Source: Bacteroidia bacterium (GTDB lineage: Bacteria; Bacteroidota; Bacteroidia; NS11-12g; UBA955). Taken from it: 64,000 bases of DNA. The notes beneath the pieces were generated by a model, which had not been told where the DNA came from, searched no databases, and saw nothing but the letters and a program-made list of their open reading frames with translations. Position numbers and translations under genes: made by a program. The first letter of the stretch is position 1. Each line of letters starts with the position of its first letter. The DNA lies in assembly GCA_044368575.1 (NCBI GenBank), contig JBIPPH010000003.1:8999-72998 (forward strand), in the 5' to 3' direction. Below, one piece after another: positions 7,923 to 17,417 of the stretch.

Positions 7923-9503
7923 ATGTATAGAATAGTTTGCTTACTTATGATTGGCTTTTGTCAATCTTTATTAGCACAATGGGTATATTTTCCTGTTGAA
8001 TCTGAACAGGCTTATAAAGTTTATAAGTCACAATGGGCTGGGTTCTCAAATAGTCCATACGATGCTGCTCAAAATAGATTTGTTCGCCTTGGGCCTAAGC
8101 CAATTTATAATTCATTAGAAATTGAAGTGTTAGATAAAAAGCGTTCTAAGTACTTTTATCATCAGCCCGACCAGTTTTATTATTTAACGGATTCAAGCAA
8201 TGATTGGCAAATGGTTGTTAATCCTGTATTTCATTTTTCAGGGGGCAAGCAAGCCAATCAAACACTCTACAGAAATACCAGAGGGGCAGAAATATATGGC
8301 CAAATAGGCGGTGAAAAGGGGGTAGGTTTTTATTCATTATTTACAGAAAATCAAGAACGCTATCCTGATGCTTATTTGTTTGCCAAAGATTCTATGAATT
8401 ATGTGCCCAATGAATGGTTTTTTAAAAATTATCAAAAACAAGGGGCTGTAGATTTTTTTCAGGCCAGAGCATATGTAACATTTAGTACGGCTAAAAATTA
8501 TATTAAAATGCAATTTGGTCATGATAAGCACAAGATTGGGAATGGCTACCGCTCTTTGATATTAAGTGATTTTGCTCCTCAATATTTGTTTTTTAAAGTC
8601 AATACGGATGTGAAAAGATTTCATTATCAAAATCTATTTACTCAGTTCATTGATAGAGGTATAGTTCAAGGCAATGTCTTGTATCCAAAAAAATTTGGAG
8701 CATTTCATCGTTTGAGCTTTGACATCAGACGCAATTTGCAAATTGGAGTTAATGAGATGGTTTTATTTGATCGTTCAGATTCAAGCATGCGCAGTCAATT
8801 TGACTTAAATTATTTAAATCCAGTCATTTTTTACAGAGCTATTGAATCAAGCATGGGGAGTAAAGATAACAGTTTAATGGCCCTTGATGCCCAATGGACC
8901 ATTCGCAATCGCTATCAAGTATTTGGGCAATTGTTGATAGATGAATTTAAATTGGATTATATCAAAAATCAACCAAATTGGTGGGCAAACAAATACGCTT
9001 ATCAAATTGGGGCAAGAGCATTTAATTTAGCTAAAATTAAAGATTTAGATGTTTTATTAGAATACAATCGTGTAAGACCATATACTTATAGTCATGGTAT
9101 ACCGAGTCAAAGCTATAGTCACTTTAATCAACCTTTGGCACACCCACTAGGGTCTAATTTTGCTGAAACAGTGGCCCAATTAAAATACCAATTTAAACGA
9201 TGGGGCATACAATGGACTGCAACCTATGCCAAAATGGGTAGAGATAGTTTCCTCAATGGCCGCAATTATGGGGCGAATATTTTAAGATCCTATGACGATA
9301 AGCGTGTGAGTGATTTCTCATCCACTATGTATATGGGTAAATTAACCAAGCTTATGGTAAATGATGTGGTAATTAGTTATCAACCCACACAACATGTTTC
9401 CTTTGACTTTAGAGTCAATTCTAGGCAAAACAATGGCGTTCAAACGTTATGGTATACGTTTGGGTTAAGAATTAATACTGCTTTAAGACAGTTTAATTAT
9501 TAA
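7923..9503 (+). CDS. Outer-membrane beta-barrel protein, Wzi/capsule-assembly-like
   Basis: Signal peptide; GNGYRSLILSD, YLNPVIFY, GQLLIDEF, PLAHPLGSNF; aromatic C-terminus. Confidence 0.7.
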   Translation: MYRIVCLLMIGFCQSLLAQWVYFPVESEQAYKVYKSQWAGFSNSPYDAAQNRFVRLGPKPIYNSLEIEVLDKKRSKYFYHQPDQFYYLTDSSNDWQMVVNPVFHFSGGKQANQTLYRNTRGAEIYGQIGGEKGVGFYSLFTENQERYPDAYLFAKDSMNYVPNEWFFKNYQKQGAVDFFQARAYVTFSTAKNYIKMQFGHDKHKIGNGYRSLILSDFAPQYLFFKVNTDVKRFHYQNLFTQFIDRGIVQGNVLYPKKFGAFHRLSFDIRRNLQIGVNEMVLFDRSDSSMRSQFDLNYLNPVIFYRAIESSMGSKDNSLMALDAQWTIRNRYQVFGQLLIDEFKLDYIKNQPNWWANKYAYQIGARAFNLAKIKDLDVLLEYNRVRPYTYSHGIPSQSYSHFNQPLAHPLGSNFAETVAQLKYQFKRWGIQWTATYAKMGRDSFLNGRNYGANILRSYDDKRVSDFSSTMYMGKLTKLMVNDVVISYQPTQHVSFDFRVNSRQNNGVQTLWYTFGLRINTALRQFNY

Positions 9504-9511
9504 GAAAATTA

Positions 9512-10183
9512 TTAATTCTTCTTGCTTGGTCTAAAGCGTTGTAAAAATCCAAGAAGTGGCATGACTTTTCTGGTTTGAACCCAAACCTTGCCTTCGCCAG
9601 AGAATCTACAAACTAAACCTTCGCCGGAAAGGAATAAAGATTTATAACCACCTTGTCTTGATACTTTATAGCTTAAGCCTTCAGTAAAAGCGACAATGTG
9701 CCCAGTGTCAACTACAAAGGCATCTTTAACATCAATGGCCATTATACCACCATAACTGTTAAACCAAAGATCACCTTGGCCCGAAGCTTTAATCAAAAAG
9801 AAACTTTCTCCTGAGAAAAACCCTTTGGTAACACCTTGCCATTTAGTGTCTAAAACAATATTAGGATTAGACGCCACATAGGCGCTGTTTTGAAGGAAAA
9901 TGGTTTCGTTGTTCAAATGGATATGCTCTAAATCTCCAGGAGTTGAGGGGGCTATTGTAATTTCACCACTGCCGTTCTGAGCAGTAAATTCATTAATGAA
10001 CAAAGATTCACCTGTCAAGAATCGACCAAGACCACCTTTGAATTTGGTTTTCATTTGGATATTGGTATCCATGGTAGCCATTGCTGAGGCTTCAACTTTT
10101 AAGGTTTCGCCTTGAGGTATTTGAACAGTTAAAAAACTGTAATCTGGTTTATGTGATATGTCAAATTGAAATGGAGTATTCAT
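9512..10183 (-). CDS. AIM24 / TIGR00266 (DUF124) family protein, copy 3
   Basis: Three internal GE(S/G)(L/F) repeats, VVDTGHIVAF, GEGKVWVQTR. Confidence 0.9.
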   Translation of the reverse strand: MNTPFQFDISHKPDYSFLTVQIPQGETLKVEASAMATMDTNIQMKTKFKGGLGRFLTGESLFINEFTAQNGSGEITIAPSTPGDLEHIHLNNETIFLQNSAYVASNPNIVLDTKWQGVTKGFFSGESFFLIKASGQGDLWFNSYGGIMAIDVKDAFVVDTGHIVAFTEGLSYKVSRQGGYKSLFLSGEGLVCRFSGEGKVWVQTRKVMPLLGFLQRFRPSKKN

Positions 10184-10186
10184 AAA

Positions 10187-10864
10187 TTATCTTGGTTTTA
10201 ATTTTGGACCGATGGAAGTGCCGAAGTTTTTTTGGTTGTGAGATTGACACCAAACAGTGCCTTTGCCCTTAAAGCGGCAGACAAAACCCTCTCCACCTAA
10301 AAATGAAGACAACCAATTGCGGCCTACTTTTGAAATCGAAAAAGATAAGCTTGGCTCAAAGGCTACGATGTGACCTGTGTCTACAATGTAATCGCCATCA
10401 ACTTCAACAGGATAAATAGCACCATAACTATTGACCACTACTTTGCCTTGGCCATTTAGATTCAACCAAAACAAGCCTTCACCTGAGAATATTGATTTTA
10501 AACCCTGCCAATTGAAATCGATTTCTACACCTGGTTCAGAAGCTAAATAAGAACCTGATTGAACAATCAGTGAGGTATTGTTTAATTCATAGGTAAACAT
10601 ATCGCCATGTAAGCCTGGCGCTAAATACAATTCTCCACCATTGGGGCCAGCTGTATAATGATTGATGAAAAAACTTTCACCGCTGATCATACGTTTTAAA
10701 CCCTTCATAATGCCACCGCTGTTTTTCTTGTATGTTGTGGTTTGGATGTCCATATCATTGCTCATGGCAATCATAGCACCACCCTCTGCAGTAATGGCTT
10801 CGTTGGGAGCCATTTGAATCTTGGCAACTGAATTGCCTGGTCCTAATTGAATGTCTATTTGCAT
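10187..10864 (-). CDS. AIM24 / TIGR00266 (DUF124) family protein, copy 2
   Basis: AEGGAMIAM, SGESFF, SGEGLF, IVDTGHIVAF, GGEGFV. Confidence 0.9.
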   Translation of the reverse strand: MQIDIQLGPGNSVAKIQMAPNEAITAEGGAMIAMSNDMDIQTTTYKKNSGGIMKGLKRMISGESFFINHYTAGPNGGELYLAPGLHGDMFTYELNNTSLIVQSGSYLASEPGVEIDFNWQGLKSIFSGEGLFWLNLNGQGKVVVNSYGAIYPVEVDGDYIVDTGHIVAFEPSLSFSISKVGRNWLSSFLGGEGFVCRFKGKGTVWCQSHNQKNFGTSIGPKLKPR

Positions 10865-10873
10865 GATGTTATT

Positions 10874-11536
10874 TTATAAATTTCTGTTGATCCATTTTGC
10901 TAAACCTGAAAAACTTCTGGTCTGCAATATAACTTTTCCTTGCCCTGTGATGCGCATCACAAAACCTTCACCGCTAGTAATACTGCTGATGATATTGCCA
11001 CTCAATTGTGTTTTGATTTTAAACCCTTTGGGATAAGCCACTAAATGGTCTGTGTCTACGATTAATTCACCATTGATTTCTTTTTCAACCAGACCACCAT
11101 AAGCGCCAATCATAAATTTACCTTCGCCACTCATTGATAATCTGAATAAGCCTTCGCCGCCAATCCATGAATTAAAACCGGCCCATTCAAGGCCCATTTT
11201 TACCCCAGGTTCAGAACAAATAAAAGCACCAGATTGAAGATACATTTTTTCACCTGCTTTGATTTCTAGTAATTTGACATCACCGGGAAATGTTTGAGTG
11301 AGCGTTAGCCTCAATGTGGCTTGAGTGTTGTTAGTATAGGTATTGATAAATAGGGATTCACCGCCTAAAAATTTGCGGATTAGGCCTTTAAACAATCCGC
11401 CATTTAATTTGGGTTGCATGTCTAATTCAGCATGCATGCTGGTCATAGCATCAGATTCTGTAATAATGCTCTCGCCTGGGGCAAGGTCAATGTGAACAAA
11501 TCCGAAGGCTGGTGCGCCTTGAATGGTGTAATTCAT
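10874..11536 (-). CDS. AIM24 / TIGR00266 (DUF124) family protein, copy 1
   Basis: TESDAM, GGESLF, GGEGLF, IVDTDHLVAY, SGEGFV, VILQTR. Confidence 0.9.
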   Translation of the reverse strand: MNYTIQGAPAFGFVHIDLAPGESIITESDAMTSMHAELDMQPKLNGGLFKGLIRKFLGGESLFINTYTNNTQATLRLTLTQTFPGDVKLLEIKAGEKMYLQSGAFICSEPGVKMGLEWAGFNSWIGGEGLFRLSMSGEGKFMIGAYGGLVEKEINGELIVDTDHLVAYPKGFKIKTQLSGNIISSITSGEGFVMRITGQGKVILQTRSFSGLAKWINRNL

Positions 11537-11544
11537 ATATTATT

Positions 11545-12642
11545 TTATTGGTTTAATGCGTTTTTTAATTGGGCTTTAAAGTCTTTATAATCAATGGCCA
11601 AAGGCTTGGCATTTTTTTCTACCGGTAAGGCCTTAAGGTTGTCTATTCGTTCTTTGGTAGCAGGGTGGGTACTTAGGAAGGATGCATCACCAAGGTCTGG
11701 AGCTTCTTTGCTCATAGTGTAAAAGAAATCAATCATGCCTTGAGTAGGAATATTAGCTATTTGTAATAGTTTAAAACCATTGTCATCGGCTTCACGTTCG
11801 TAGTCTCTGCTGTATTTTAAAGAGCTAAGTGCTGCGCCAGCTGTTGCAATGTCTGCAGAAATGCCAGCGATATCACCAATTAAACCACGTAAAATAAAGA
11901 ACAAGCCAAAATTGCTAATGATGCCTCTTAGGTGATGACGCTTTGTGACATGCGAAATCTCATGGGCTAAAACACCCGCCACTTCTTCAGCTGATTGCGC
12001 TTTTTGCAATAAACCACTGTGAATGATAACTGCCCCGCCTGGTAAAGCAAAGGCATTCAAACTTTCGTCTTCAATAATTGTAAATGAGAATTTAAATTGT
12101 GTATCATTAACGGCTTTAACCAATGGTTCCGTGATGAGTTTGAGTTTTAGATTGATAAGGCTATCTGAAATGATGTGTTTGTCAACTAATGCAGCCTTGC
12201 GCATCTCTTCTGAAATTTTTTGTTCTTGACTCGGTGGAATGGAATTGGCAATTTTTTCAACCATTTTGTCCTTCATTAGCCATAGGCCTATCATTAAGGC
12301 GATTACTATGCCTGTGATAACCATGGCTGAAGTCCATAGACTTGTTTTTCTGCGCATTAAGTTCTGAAGAATAGGCTTAAGTTCAGGATGAGCAGAAAAT
12401 GCTGGATCTTGAAGAATGGCCTTTTGATCAGTGTAAAGGGTAATCCCGCTTGAACTTGTGTGGTTGAAAAACAAATAGCGATTGGCTGCACCGCCAATTT
12501 GAATGTCTATACCTTGAATGGGCATTGAATGTATAATGCCACCATCATTGATAAACAATAGTTGGTCATCTTGGATTTGAAGTTGTCCGCTACAACGACC
12601 GTTTTTGAAGCTTTCTGAAAGGGCTATTCCGTTGTATTGCAT
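11545..12642 (-). CDS. M48 family zinc metallopeptidase with an N-terminal soluble domain and one TM helix
   Basis: NAFALPGG, AGVLAHEISH (HExxH), YSRDYEREAD, FLSTHP; hydrophobic helix at about aa 102-123. Confidence 0.9.
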   Translation of the reverse strand: MQYNGIALSESFKNGRCSGQLQIQDDQLLFINDGGIIHSMPIQGIDIQIGGAANRYLFFNHTSSSGITLYTDQKAILQDPAFSAHPELKPILQNLMRRKTSLWTSAMVITGIVIALMIGLWLMKDKMVEKIANSIPPSQEQKISEEMRKAALVDKHIISDSLINLKLKLITEPLVKAVNDTQFKFSFTIIEDESLNAFALPGGAVIIHSGLLQKAQSAEEVAGVLAHEISHVTKRHHLRGIISNFGLFFILRGLIGDIAGISADIATAGAALSSLKYSRDYEREADDNGFKLLQIANIPTQGMIDFFYTMSKEAPDLGDASFLSTHPATKERIDNLKALPVEKNAKPLAIDYKDFKAQLKNALNQ

Positions 12643-12645
12643 ACT

Positions 12646-15258
12646 TTAAAACAAAGTTTTTTGACCGTCTAGTTCTTCAGCTATCACTTGAGTTTCAGAG
12701 TTGGATGCTTCAACTATTGGCTCAGTTTCTACTTTCCAAGTGCCCACTTTTGGACTGATTAATTTGGCGGATTTGAAAGTGTCGTAAGTGATTTTGTTAC
12801 CTATGGCTTTCCAACCTTTTACCTCAATAAAGTCAGCTATTTTGATGATTTCAGTTTTCTTTTCTCCTTTAGCGGTGGTCACTTTTATCTCTACCTCAGG
12901 GTTTTCATCGGTGCTTGCAATGATTAATTTGCTGCTAGGTCTTTCATTGATGAACAAAAATTTCTTGCCCACTGTAGTGGTTTCAATTAAAAAGCGTTTT
13001 GCGTAATAATTTCTAGATGATACATCGTAATGAATGCAATTGATTGGTTGCTTTTCATGGAATTTTTGAATCAAATAGATGTCATTGTTTTCATAACGAT
13101 TGGTTAGTTCGTTGTCTGTTAACTCATAACTACCATCATTAAAGATGACCAAGATTTTATCTTCAGAAGTGAAGTTGCCTAATAATTGACCTCTGTTGTC
13201 TACATTCAATCTGCCAATATCTGAATCGTACCAAATATCTCTGCCTTTAAATGTAGATTTACCTTTTTCTTTTAGTTCAATCTTTCTGATAGGGTGCTTG
13301 GTTAAAGTATTGCCCTTTGAAGAACGGCCTTTAATTTCTAGGTGCCTGAAATCGTATTCAAAATATTTGATTTTGGCGCTGGCCATATTGCTTAAATGAA
13401 TGCCGATTTTTTCAGCTTCACTATTGTTATTGGCAGAGAAATACAACAGTTTACTGCCTGGGGTTTCCATGGTTACAGTATATACCTTATCTCTGATAAC
13501 CCCTAAAACATTGAAACGCTTAACATAACTTACACCTGATTTGCCATCATAGTAGGACACATTGTATACTTTTCTCTCGTCATTTTTACGGTAGACATCT
13601 ACATACAATAAGTCTTTGCCCATGAACTGTTTTTCAGATACTTTACTCACCAAGTAACTACCATCTTTTCTGAAGGCAATCACATCATCAATATCAGAAC
13701 AATCGCAGATATAAGTATCCTTTTTAAGTCCATACCCAACAAAGCCTTCTTCGTAATTTACATATAGTTTTTCGTTGGCAACAGCCACCACATTCGTTTC
13801 GATTTTATCAAACAATCTGATTTCAGTTTTACGCTCTTTGCCCTTGCCGTATTTTTTGATGAGGTTTTTGAAGTAATCAACAGCAAATTCAGTTAAGTTA
13901 TCTAAATGGTGTTGAACTTGTTTGATTTGATCCTCTAATCCTTTGATGTATTCATCAGCTTTAAAGGCATCGTATTTAGAAATACGTTTGATTTTAATCT
14001 CCGGTAGTTTGGCGATATCGTCTTTAGTGATTTCTCTTCTCAATAACTTTTTGAAAGGTTTGATTTTCTTGTCAATCATTTCAAGAATCTCATCCCAAGT
14101 TTCACATTCCTCAATATGACGGTATATCTTATTTTCGATGAAGATTTTCTCCAATGAACTAAAATGCCATTTGTTTTCTAAATGGTTCATTTCATTCTCT
14201 AGTTCAATCTTGAGCAAGTTGAGGGTATGATCAGTAGAGGTTTTAAGGATATCATTGACACCTAAAAACAGCGGCTTATCATCTACAATTACGCAGGCGT
14301 TAGGAGAGATGCTTACCTCACAATCAGTAAAGGCATACAAAGCATCAATGGTCATATCTGTGCTCACGCCTGGGGCTAATTGCACTTCAATTTCCACGTC
14401 TTTAGCGGTATTGTCAATTACCTTTTTGATTTTGATTTTGCCGTTGTCATTGGCTTTAAGAATGCTCTCGATAATGCTTTCTGTAGTAGTGCCAAATGGA
14501 ATTTCTTTGATCAGTACCTTCTTGCCATCTGAAGACTCAATTTTAGCTCTACATCTTATTTTACCGCCTCTTCGACCTTCGTTGTAATTGCTAAAGTCGG
14601 CCATGCCACCCGTTAAAAAGTCAGGTAAGATATTGCTCTTTTTGCCTTTTAAAATATCAATGCTGGCTTCACATAACTCAATAAAGTTGTGAGGCATGAT
14701 TTTAGTCGCTAAACCGACAGCAATCCCTTCAACACCTTGCGCTAAAATCAAAGGGAATTTAACCGGCAAGGCAATGGGTTCACGTTTTCTGCCATCATAA
14801 CTAACTTGCCAATCAGTTGTTTCATCATTGAAACTTACTTCCAACGCAAATTTAGATAAACGGGCTTCAATATACCTCGATGCAGCAGCACTGTCACCAG
14901 TTCTAACATCGCCCCAGTTACCTTGGGTTTCAATCAATAAATCTTTTTGACCCAAATTGACAATGGCTTCACCGATCGCAGCGTCACCATGTGGGTGGTA
15001 TTGCATCGCTGAACCAATAATATTGGCCACCTTGTTGAATCGACCGTCGTCCATTTCTTTCATTACATGGAGTATGCGTCGTTGTACTGGTTTTAATCCA
15101 TCGTATAAATTTGGAACAGCGCGTTCCAAAATGACATAACTGGCATATTCTAAAAACCAGTTTTCGTAGAGTCCAGACACTGGTAATACGCCAGCTCCGT
15201 CTCTATGGCCATGGTGAATAATCCCGTCAATATGTTCTTCTTCTTCGTTGTGCTCCAT
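12646..15258 (-). CDS. parC: DNA topoisomerase IV subunit A (Bacteroidota type)
   Basis: DGLKPVQRR, HPHGD, catalytic AASRYIEARL, GIAVGLAT; no GyrA box seen; directly downstream of parE. Confidence 0.9.
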   Translation of the reverse strand: MEHNEEEEHIDGIIHHGHRDGAGVLPVSGLYENWFLEYASYVILERAVPNLYDGLKPVQRRILHVMKEMDDGRFNKVANIIGSAMQYHPHGDAAIGEAIVNLGQKDLLIETQGNWGDVRTGDSAAASRYIEARLSKFALEVSFNDETTDWQVSYDGRKREPIALPVKFPLILAQGVEGIAVGLATKIMPHNFIELCEASIDILKGKKSNILPDFLTGGMADFSNYNEGRRGGKIRCRAKIESSDGKKVLIKEIPFGTTTESIIESILKANDNGKIKIKKVIDNTAKDVEIEVQLAPGVSTDMTIDALYAFTDCEVSISPNACVIVDDKPLFLGVNDILKTSTDHTLNLLKIELENEMNHLENKWHFSSLEKIFIENKIYRHIEECETWDEILEMIDKKIKPFKKLLRREITKDDIAKLPEIKIKRISKYDAFKADEYIKGLEDQIKQVQHHLDNLTEFAVDYFKNLIKKYGKGKERKTEIRLFDKIETNVVAVANEKLYVNYEEGFVGYGLKKDTYICDCSDIDDVIAFRKDGSYLVSKVSEKQFMGKDLLYVDVYRKNDERKVYNVSYYDGKSGVSYVKRFNVLGVIRDKVYTVTMETPGSKLLYFSANNNSEAEKIGIHLSNMASAKIKYFEYDFRHLEIKGRSSKGNTLTKHPIRKIELKEKGKSTFKGRDIWYDSDIGRLNVDNRGQLLGNFTSEDKILVIFNDGSYELTDNELTNRYENNDIYLIQKFHEKQPINCIHYDVSSRNYYAKRFLIETTTVGKKFLFINERPSSKLIIASTDENPEVEIKVTTAKGEKKTEIIKIADFIEVKGWKAIGNKITYDTFKSAKLISPKVGTWKVETEPIVEASNSETQVIAEELDGQKTLF

Positions 15259-15261
15259 AAA

Positions 15262-17145
15262 TTATGCTTCTTCTGATTCTAATTCTACCACTACAGCCTC
15301 AGTGGTAATGTCCTTTTCAATGTATAAGTTATCAATGATAAACTCTTGGCGTTCTGGGGTGTTTTTTCCCATGTAGTACTTCAAGAGCTTTTCAATACTG
15401 GTTTCTTTGGTTAAGATAATTGGCTCTAAGCGCATATCTTCACCAATAAAGCGCTCAAATTCATTTGGTGAAATTTCTCCCAATCCTTTGAATCGGGTAA
15501 TTTCAGGTTTGTGGCCTAAGTGCCTAATGGCTTTTTGTTTTTCCTCTTCGTTGTAACAGTAAATGGTTTCTTTCTTGTTTCTTACCCTGAACAATGGTGT
15601 TTGAAGGATGTATACGTGTCCATTTCTTACCAAGTCTGGGAAGAATTGTAAGAAGAAAGTCATGAGCAACATACGGATGTGCATACCGTCAACGTCAGCA
15701 TCGGTTGCGATTACAATTCTATTGAAACGAAGGTTATCAAGGCCTTCCTCAATATCTAAAGCATGTTGTAGAAGGTTGAATTCTTCGTTTTCATACACCA
15801 CTTTCTTTTTTAATCCATAGCAGTTCAAGGGTTTCCCTCTTAAGCTAAACACGGCCTGATGCTCAACATTTCTACTTTTGGTGATACTTCCGCTCGCACT
15901 ATCTCCCTCAGTAATGAAGATGGTGGTGTCAAATTTTTCGTCTTTGTTGTCGGTTAAGTGCAAACGACAATCGCGTAATTTTTTATTGTGCAGGTTGGCT
16001 TTCTTTGCCCTTTGCTGAGCAAGTTTCCTAACACCTGCCATGTCTTTTCTTTCTCTTTCGTTTTGAAGGATTTTCTTTAAAAGCGCTTCTGCAGTTTGAG
16101 GGTTTTTGTGCAGAAAGTTATCCATCAATTTCATTAGGTTCTCACTCACAAAAGAGCGCATCCCTTGGCCTCCTGGGGCCATTTCAGTACTACCTAATTT
16201 GGTTTTAGTTTGAGACTCAAACACCGGCTCTTGTACCCTTACTGCAATGGCTGCCGATATCGAAGTCCTAACATCAGAAGCATCAAAATCTTTTTTGTAA
16301 AACTCTCTGATTGTCTTTACTACTGCTTCTTTAAGGGCAGATAAGTGTGTTCCACCTTGCGTGGTGTATTGTCCGTTCACAAACGAATAGTATTCTTCAC
16401 CGTATTGGGTGCCGTGGGTGATGGCCACTTCAAAATCACTTTCTTTGAAGTGCATGATCGGATACAAAATGGTTTCAGTATCAACTTTGCGCTCTAACAA
16501 ATCTTTCAGGCCATTTTTAGACAAGAAGTTTCTGCCGTTGAATTGAAGGGTAAGACCAGAATTCAAAAAGGCATAGTTCCACATTTGCTCTTCAAGGAAC
16601 TCAGGAATGAATCTATAATTCTTGAAAATGCTATTATCTGGTTCGAAAATGATGAGCGTACCATCTCGACCATCGGTCTTTTCTTCCTTAAAATCCTTCT
16701 GTAGCTCACCTTTAGCAAACTCCGCTTTTTTGGTTTTGCCATCTCTAAAGGATTGGACACAAAAGTAGGAGGAAAGGGCGTTCACTGCTTTGGTACCCAC
16801 TCCATTCAAACCCACTGATTTTTGAAAAGCTCCAGAGTCGTATTTGCCACCAGTGTTGATTTTGCTCACACAATCAATCACTTTTCCCAATGGAATACCG
16901 CGGCCATAATCTCTTATTTCAACTTTATTATCACTGATGCTGATTTCTATTTTTTTACCATGGCCCATCATGTGCTCGTCAATACTGTTGTCGAGGATTT
17001 CTTTCACCAACACATAAATGCCATCGTCTGCTGATGAGCCATCGCCCAGCTTACCAATGTACATCCCTGGACGCATTCGAATATGCTCTTTCCAATCGAG
17101 GGATCTTATACTGTCTTCTGAGTAATTCACATTTTGATCTGCCAT
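15262..17145 (-). CDS. parE: DNA topoisomerase IV subunit B
   Basis: [59 protein letters not shown] 17145 preferred, downstream of a TAATTTCG element. Confidence 0.93.
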
Positions 17146-17417
17146 AATTTCAATAGAAAGCGAAATTAAGGCCATTTAGCTTGTGGTTATTTACAACCTC
17201 AAGGGACTTATGAACAAATTCTAGGGTAAAATGTTGATTAATCAAACTAAAACCTACTTGGTTTAAATAAATGTGTAAATATTTTTTAATTATTTGAAAA
17301 TCAAATTAATACCTATTTGTTTTTGCGATTTAATTCAGTAATTCTAAAAGTTAATTGAGCAAGTGCTTGTTTTTTGAAGTTTGAAATACTAAATTTGCAC
17401 TCCCAAAAAGAAAAATC

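Follow-up and report, generated by a model that had tools for sequence, protein, structure and literature searches.

A conserved bacterial gene cassette pairs a membrane-anchored M48 metalloprotease with three ancient AIM24 paralogues

We describe here a cassette of four genes, encoding an M48 zinc metalloprotease with a predicted membrane anchor and three paralogous AIM24 proteins, in a 64,000-nucleotide stretch of contig JBIPPH010000003.1 from a Bacteroidia bacterium (the window, to which all coordinates below refer). The same genes recur in the same order in several bacterial phyla, and the three AIM24 copies belong to lineages that separated long ago. Neither the AIM24 nor the M48 family is new, and the pairing of a protease with a partner protein has parallels; the two have not been described together, and our literature search found no paper dealing with both AIM24 and M48. 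We tentatively propose, at a confidence that falls a little short of even, that the four genes specify one membrane-associated protein machine, with an AIM24 ring seated on a PH-like domain of the protease, which serves envelope or membrane quality control.

An initial annotation of the window, made from its letters and open reading frames (ORFs), had reported an M48 peptidase gene followed by three AIM24 genes with gaps of 8, 9 and 3 nucleotides (nt). All four ORFs are present at the positions that it gave:

11545-12642, minus strand: M48 zinc metalloprotease gene, from the ORF list; 365 amino acids (aa); Pfam PF01435, E 1.3e-30
10874-11536, minus strand: AIM24 paralogue 1 gene; 220 aa; Pfam PF01987, E 2.3e-58; TIGR00266, 202 bits
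10187-10864, minus strand: AIM24 paralogue 2 gene; 225 aa; PF01987, E 2.5e-68; TIGR00266, 206.6 bits
9512-10183, minus strand: AIM24 paralogue 3 gene; 223 aa; PF01987, E 3.3e-67; TIGR00266, 229.6 bits

Copies 1, 2 and 3 score 197.7, 230.2 and 226.6 bits against PF01987, for which the cut-off is 25.7, and all three exceed the NCBIfam TIGR00266 cut-off (96.6 bits); 'TIGR00266 family protein' is also the name given to cassette AIM24 genes in public annotation. The paralogues had been described as 220-225 aa long and clearly diverged, which agrees with their sizes and with pairwise identities of 37, 32 and 42%. No AIM24 gene beyond these three was found in the genome to which the window belongs (2.19 Mb, 105 contigs searched). 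Each copy carries once the VDT(G/D)H(I/L)VA motif that had been pointed out, in the form VDTDHLVA or VDTGHIVA. The accompanying claim of three GE(S/G)(L/F) repeats per protein is right for copies 2 and 3, in which GE[SG]x occurs three times, and needs amending for copy 1, in which it occurs four times; in either case the occurrences are spaced by about 65 residues. The absence of a signal peptide also stands, since none of the copies has a hydrophobic N-terminus or indeed any hydrophobic segment (Kyte-Doolittle maximum 1.14). Among solved structures, copy 2 matches 1PG6 (SpyM3_0169; E 7.1e-21) and 1YOX (PA3696; E 6.9e-20), members of the same AIM24 family that were single-gene structural-genomics targets of unknown function.

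The initial annotation regarded the M48 gene and the three AIM24 genes as a candidate unit, and neighbourhood comparisons within the genus and beyond it bear this out. Of 33 genus genomes, 18 encode a full-length protease orthologue, with 47-100% identity. A search for AIM24 in 25 genus genomes returned three or four matches in 15 of them and one match in the other ten, whose lone AIM24 is of another type, about 265 aa long. The protease orthologue accompanies the multi-copy AIM24s in 14 of 15 genomes (the exception being a genome whose AIM24 run is cut off by the end of a contig) and is found in none of the ten single-AIM24 genomes. The order protease, copy 1, copy 2, copy 3 holds in all 15 genus loci that were fetched, and each copy in these loci is closest to the window copy of the same position (67-99%). 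Visual inspection of the first residues encoded by the neighbours of the singleton form suggests endonuclease-III-like and large hydrolase-like genes and no protease. This singleton, a distinct AIM24 with a length of about 260-281 aa and a conserved Gly-rich C-terminal tail, is common among genus and order relatives (loci L004-L023) and is absent from the window's genome.

Beyond the genus, loci were collected from the protease side (the protease alignment was run against a single genome of each species; 80 loci kept) and from the AIM24 side (metagenomes, with the copy-1 alignment as query; again 80 loci kept). A protease with the N-terminal domain (N-domain) of the window protease was encoded at 16 of the 80 protease-side loci, and in ten of these 16 it is followed by three AIM24 genes in the same positional order. 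These ten cassettes come from a Bacteroidia metagenome-assembled genome (MAG), Mucilaginibacter aquatilis (Sphingobacteriaceae), Flavobacterium davisii, two Cellvibrio MAGs, a gammaproteobacterial MAG, two Alteromonadaceae MAGs (with incomplete gene calls in one), a Pseudobdellovibrionaceae MAG (Bdellovibrionota) and a Rhodopirellula MAG (Planctomycetota). In three further N-domain loci, two from Nitrospirota and one from Methyloglobulus, a single AIM24 gene lies directly upstream of the protease, and the same single-AIM24 arrangement, AIM24 then N-domain protease, is seen at another Nitrospira locus (L200). The remaining 64 protease-side loci, which have no N-domain match and mostly hold longer BepA-like genes, differ from the window cassette in that none has an AIM24 match. 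Seen from the other side, the protease lies directly upstream in 49 of the 59 metagenome copy-1 loci with more than 1.2 kb of upstream sequence, and copy 2 and then copy 3 follow in all 50 loci with more than 1.5 kb downstream. The linkage of protease and AIM24s is therefore strong and not obligatory. The flanks of 12 cassette loci contain no conserved fifth gene. At one locus (L046) an M48 match was detected by tblastn with no corresponding ORF in the locus scan, and copy 1 was not called. Copy 3 of gammaproteobacterial cassettes is extended at its N-terminus by about 110 residues, for a total of 326-349 aa (L043:5869-6864, L044:8528-9508, L045:4338-5330 and L046:8690-9739); this extension gave no confident Pfam match, and the high-GC metagenome loci that lack the protease likewise have a long copy 3.

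Two histories could account for three tandem paralogues, ancient orthologous copies or duplications that group by genome, and the initial annotation had favoured the former. In a tree of 59 of the 100 AIM24 sequences collected (near-duplicate genus loci were left out), the cassette proteins fall into three position-specific clades with support values, from the Shimodaira-Hasegawa-like approximate likelihood ratio test (SH-aLRT), of 95 for copy 1, 97 for copy 2 and 95 for copy 3. The position-1 clade unites all 16 position-1 rows, and each positional clade holds members from Bacteroidota, Pseudomonadota, Bdellovibrionota and Planctomycetota. Forcing the window AIM24s into a clade of their own costs 525 log-likelihood units and is rejected by the approximately unbiased test (p-AU 1.6e-44), and with it grouping by genome. 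A branch of length 2.43 (support 100) parts the cassette AIM24s from the singleton form and the Methyloglobulus gene, and the position-2 clade has the single Nitrospirota AIM24 as its sister (support 82). Each position also has its own conserved C-terminal tail, and across phyla the AIM24s are the most conserved proteins of the cassette, with 54-62% identity as against 43% for the catalytic domain of the protease. The three copies are thus ancient, non-interchangeable lineages, always retained together.

The cassette does not stand alone in the window. Immediately upstream of it, and omitted from the initial annotation, are two further genes that we give here for context and which lie outside the conserved unit:

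12646-15258, minus strand: parC (NCBIfam NF009397, 1327.6 bits)
15262-17175, minus strand: parE, co-directional with parC

The six genes parE, parC, M48 and AIM24 1, 2 and 3 are all read from the minus strand with gaps of 3, 3, 8, 9 and 3 nt, and the ORF map places the protease start 3 nt past the parC stop. The adjacency to parE-parC is shared by only the two closest relatives (L031 and L034) among the 15 genus loci, and we therefore treat it as local context. It does illustrate how genes may come to lie together by chance or through merely local arrangement with no shared function; for the cassette itself such an explanation is very improbable, given that its conservation across phyla is recovered from the protease side as well as from the AIM24 side and that the AIM24 copies form positional clades. 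Elsewhere, the Methyloglobulus AIM24-protease pair (L069) sits between parE-like and parC-like genes, and a parE/gyrB-like gene lies 3.6 kb upstream in L044. On the opposite flank of the window cassette, a gene for a 526-aa protein (7923-9503, plus strand) is convergent with AIM24 copy 3, with 8 nt between them. Its product has a hydrophobic, signal-like N-terminus and belongs to no Pfam or NCBIfam family; homologues occur near the cassette in genus loci L024, L026, L028, L031, L034 and L037 and in L039, and were not seen near cassettes of other phyla.

Two riverine metatranscriptome runs yielded assembled contigs that cover the locus. One (9375-11894) spans copies 3, 2 and 1 together with 350 nt of the protease gene, and a second (11762-14361) runs from the protease into parC. 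Such contigs give neither depth nor transcript ends, and they are a weak hint of co-transcription of the cassette. A scan for regulatory sites was uninformative: promoter-like sites numbered 24 as against 26.8 expected, with a sigma-70 consensus that may not suit this organism, and terminator-like sites 11 as against 6.6 expected.

The protease is made up of the following parts:

12349-12642, minus strand: PH-like N-domain, residues 1-98 (AlphaFold model with a predicted local distance difference test score, pLDDT, of 94)
12274-12330, minus strand: predicted transmembrane helix, residues 105-123 (best 19-residue Kyte-Doolittle window 2.31)
11629-12147, minus strand: M48 catalytic domain, residues 166-338 (the Pfam PF01435 stretch)
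11950-11964, minus strand: HEISH zinc-site motif, residues 227-231

This matches the soluble N-domain of about 100 aa, single transmembrane helix and intact HEISH...E site that had been read from the sequence. The PF01435 score is 107 bits (family cut-off 20.3), and residues H227, E228, H231, E282 and H326 are invariant across 41 members of the protease family. In one genus genome that is 52% complete (G012:C34:5506-6590) the protease gene is split by an in-frame TGA, and its three AIM24 genes look intact. Residues 105-123 form the only strongly hydrophobic stretch in the chain. Summed over 23 orthologues, the 15 residues flanking this helix contain 91 lysines and arginines on its N-terminal side and 45 on its C-terminal side which, by the positive-inside rule, predicts that the N-domain is cytoplasmic and the catalytic domain periplasmic, in line with the earlier suggestion that the active site lies across the membrane from the N-domain. 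The named carriers of the cassette all belong to diderm phyla, which fits a periplasmic task.

Comparison with characterised M48 enzymes suggests a relative of the envelope proteases rather than a known member. The closest known counterpart is BepA (YfgC; PDB 6SAR and 6AIT), which acts in outer-membrane protein quality control in E. coli. The two proteins share the M48 domain with its HExxH motif and glutamate (window residues 139-337 aligned, E 6.5e-18), and the catalytic domain of the window protease is likewise predicted to be periplasmic. Unlike BepA, the window protease has no signal peptide and no TPR domain, and instead has a predicted cytoplasmic PH-like domain and a transmembrane anchor; its N-terminus is not hydrophobic, Pfam gave no TPR match and the chain ends at residue 365. 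It falls well below the NCBIfam cut-off for BepA (NF052400: 125.5 bits as against 570, covering only profile positions 40-254 of 483), as it does for LoiP (NF052399: 69.1 bits as against 365) and for HtpX (at most 38.9 bits against models with cut-offs of 245-422). The best sequence match with a solved structure is an M48 peptidase of Geobacter sulfurreducens (PDB 3C37; E 6.2e-31, residues 136-356), a minimal M48 domain in a 253-residue chain, which aligns with the catalytic part only and whose entry name gives no function. Protease residue H326 is aligned with E. coli BepA His-246, an auto-inhibitory fourth zinc ligand that, in the part of the report by Daimon et al. (10.1101/2020.07.07.192476) concerned with this residue, is described as keeping BepA latent. 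Conservation of this histidine-switch residue implies that the activity of the window protease is regulated, and the enzyme is probably latent until the switch opens.

On its own the N-domain gave no Pfam match at E values up to 1, and none was found for this region in any of the 41 members of the family at a limit of E 0.01, in a Pfam set whose inclusion of PF23368 was unchecked. That family (DUF7092, the N-terminal domain of some M48 peptidases) is present in 12-52% of the members of the nearest Atlas clusters, which we treat as a lead only; no paper naming DUF7092 was found in the literature search. The predicted model has seven strands and a C-terminal helix, and G15, R16, G50, G51, R55 and H61 are conserved residues of the domain. 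A Foldseek search of the PDB placed the PH-GRAM domain of MTMR6 first (E 5.8e-4), followed by Lam6, GRK2, FAPP1 and PTB domains, with FERM also represented, and all 50 entries listed by VIA-align have the PH-like superfold (PH, PTB, FERM-F3 or EVH1), with Z scores of 6.1-7.4 that are middling for this tool. The fold is thus predicted to be PH-like, which by itself indicates no function. A word-indexed homologue search with residues 1-130 returned three close relatives only, and a profile search was used instead. Among 1.84 billion representatives, clustered at 50% identity, the N-domain profile matched 574 clusters at E<=1e-3, a number that falls to 266 at E<=1e-10. Of the best 150 matches, 112 are proteins of 340-480 aa, and every one of these 112 contains HExxH. 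One 4869-aa protein (P0033) with 16 profile stretches was judged spurious: Pfam shows it to consist of Calx-beta, PKD and fn3 repeats, so the match probably reflects a generic beta-sandwich resemblance.

We suggest that these proteins work together in the following way. The protease would be a single-pass inner-membrane protein, with its PH-like domain of about 98 residues in the cytoplasm and its BepA/LoiP-like M48 domain in the periplasm. The three AIM24s would be soluble and cytoplasmic, each built of three TRAP-like repeats, and would act as non-redundant subunits, most likely of a 1:1:1 heterotrimeric ring at the cytoplasmic face of the membrane. Such a ring could bind, stabilise or regulate the protease through the PH-like domain, which is predicted to be its only cytoplasmic part, and the resulting module would probably help diderm bacteria to control the quality of their envelope or membrane proteins. 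The initial annotation had arrived at a similar picture of a hetero-oligomeric AIM24 ring docked on the N-domain. Three elements of that picture have gained support here, namely paralogues that do not group by genome, conserved linkage to the M48 gene and the predicted topology; the ring and its docking are carried forward as a proposal.

The nearest precedent for this arrangement is found in plants. According to passages of Lin et al. (2019; PMC6677890), two AIM24 proteins of Arabidopsis, PAWH1 and PAWH2, attach to a membrane protein, EBS7, at its soluble N-terminal domain, and they stabilise the Hrd1 complex of endoplasmic-reticulum-associated degradation (ERAD); an AIM24 chain is described there as three TRAP-like beta-sandwich repeats, and the PAWHs were homology-modelled as a flat-faced homotrimeric ring. 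The parallel has its limits: the PAWHs are eukaryotic, their partner is a ubiquitin ligase complex rather than a protease, they have a predicted C-terminal transmembrane helix (PMC6677890), and they are two closely related paralogues as against the three ancient ones of the cassette. A hydrophobic C-terminal stretch that resembles a membrane anchor is present in the 272-aa Methyloglobulus AIM24 (L069:4799-5617), and recalls the C-terminal helix predicted for the plant proteins. Yeast Aim24, as cited in that paper, also has the AIM24 domain, is tightly associated with the mitochondrial inner membrane, an energy-transducing one, and stabilises MICOS and respiratory supercomplexes; it is a single gene, and no protease partner figures in those passages. 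They also state that the physiological role of the family's bacterial members was wholly unknown (PMC6677890). Other papers retrieved in our search concern plant AIM24 subfamilies (PMC10203443) and archaeal dark matter (PMC6393860).

Bacteria offer analogues of the logic, if not of the proteins. HflK/C with FtsH and SPFH (stomatin) proteins with NfeD are operon-encoded pairings of ring- or cage-forming partners with membrane proteases. Here, too, oligomeric partners encoded beside a membrane protease organise or restrain it. We intend this as an analogy only, given that the HflK/C and SPFH proteins are unrelated in fold to the AIM24s and are themselves membrane-anchored.

Several observations weigh against the proposed machine. 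The trimer itself is extrapolated from homology modelling of the plant proteins and not from a determined oligomer. The N-domain, on which the ring would dock, ranks low in conservation within the cassette (27% identity across phyla), and its PH-like fold with conserved basic residues R16 and R55 could have a lipid rather than a protein as its ligand. Three of the 16 N-domain loci (Leptospiraceae, Verrucomicrobiales and a Planctomycetota MAG) have no adjacent AIM24, and the Leptospiraceae genome yielded zero AIM24 matches altogether. Conversely, ten of the 59 metagenome loci have the AIM24 genes with no protease upstream, all of them at 55-65% GC and with the extended copy 3. No proof of a single transcript can come from the metatranscriptome contigs, and DNA may be present in the libraries. 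Finally, the N-domain profile found no match in 400 other genomes of the window's phylum, a draw that speaks of rarity rather than absence because not all first-look candidates were scored per genome.

The poor conservation of the N-domain relative to the AIM24s, its basic residues and the occurrence of either partner without the other in some lineages would all fit a link that is functional without being physical. The four proteins might then be co-regulated members of one response to stress, such as stress on the membrane or the envelope, with a PH-like domain that binds inner-membrane lipid and not the AIM24s. AIM24 genes are also reported within ter (tellurite-resistance) clusters in passages of PMC5822837 that mention no M48 protease; no ter gene such as TerD or TerB is found among the window neighbours, and a TerB-DnaJ gene is present in one of the 12 cassette flanks (L045). 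Several findings speak against such a looser association: across phyla the gene order is constant and the genes are very closely spaced, the flanks share nothing, and the three paralogues are kept together in 50 of 50 loci. We consider it unlikely overall, while regarding it as a serious competitor to the docked ring.

It is also conceivable that the module is a trans-membrane signalling device. An AIM24 ring might sense a cytoplasmic ligand, much as TRAP senses tryptophan, and gate the periplasmic protease by way of the PH-like domain and transmembrane helix, or else the state of the protease might be relayed inward to the ring. The repeat architecture described in PMC6677890 lends itself to this idea, as does the conserved histidine-switch residue with the regulated activity that it implies. 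In the predicted full-length model of the protease (pLDDT 85), moreover, one long helix (residues 89-134), which includes the predicted transmembrane segment, connects the PH-like and M48 domains. Since AIM24 has no known ligand site, and no conserved transcription factor or other output partner lies beside the cassette, we think this rather improbable. A more specific and bolder version is an inside-out proteolytic switch, in which a 1:1:1 AIM24 heterotrimer with nine TRAP-like repeats would bind a cytoplasmic metabolite or a membrane-state signal and, through the PH-like domain and the transmembrane helix, open the histidine switch of the periplasmic BepA-like protease. We hold this to be a speculative reading with a small chance of being correct. 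If it were true, the state of the cytoplasm would control proteolysis in the envelope, and the roles of eukaryotic AIM24s beside membrane quality-control machines (Hrd1 ERAD, MICOS) would trace back to a partnership of this kind in bacteria.

The uneven distribution of the cassette raises one further alternative, that of an accessory defence or abortive-infection module in which an AIM24 assembly would be a membrane-active effector held under protease control. Its patchy spread, rare within the window's phylum and yet represented in several phyla, the variation in presence and absence inside a single genus, and one locus that lies beside a HigB/HigA-like toxin-antitoxin pair would be in keeping with this. 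None of the four proteins matched a model of PADLOC-DB 2.0.0 at E values up to 0.01, however, their neighbours are mostly housekeeping or metabolic genes, and the AIM24s have no membrane segment with which to act as effectors. A defence role is accordingly a marginal prospect.

A single membrane-associated machine remains the reading that we favour, with the reservations set out above, and it would have consequences for both protein families. The protease would join the envelope set of BepA, LoiP and HtpX as a regulated relative that is anchored in the inner membrane. For AIM24, the cassette provides a testable handle on its role in bacteria, in the form of three non-redundant paralogues tied to a membrane protease, and it parallels the placement of eukaryotic AIM24s beside complexes for membrane quality control or membrane organisation. 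The presence of the cassette in cultured bacteria, including Mucilaginibacter aquatilis and Flavobacterium species, makes the system open to direct study.

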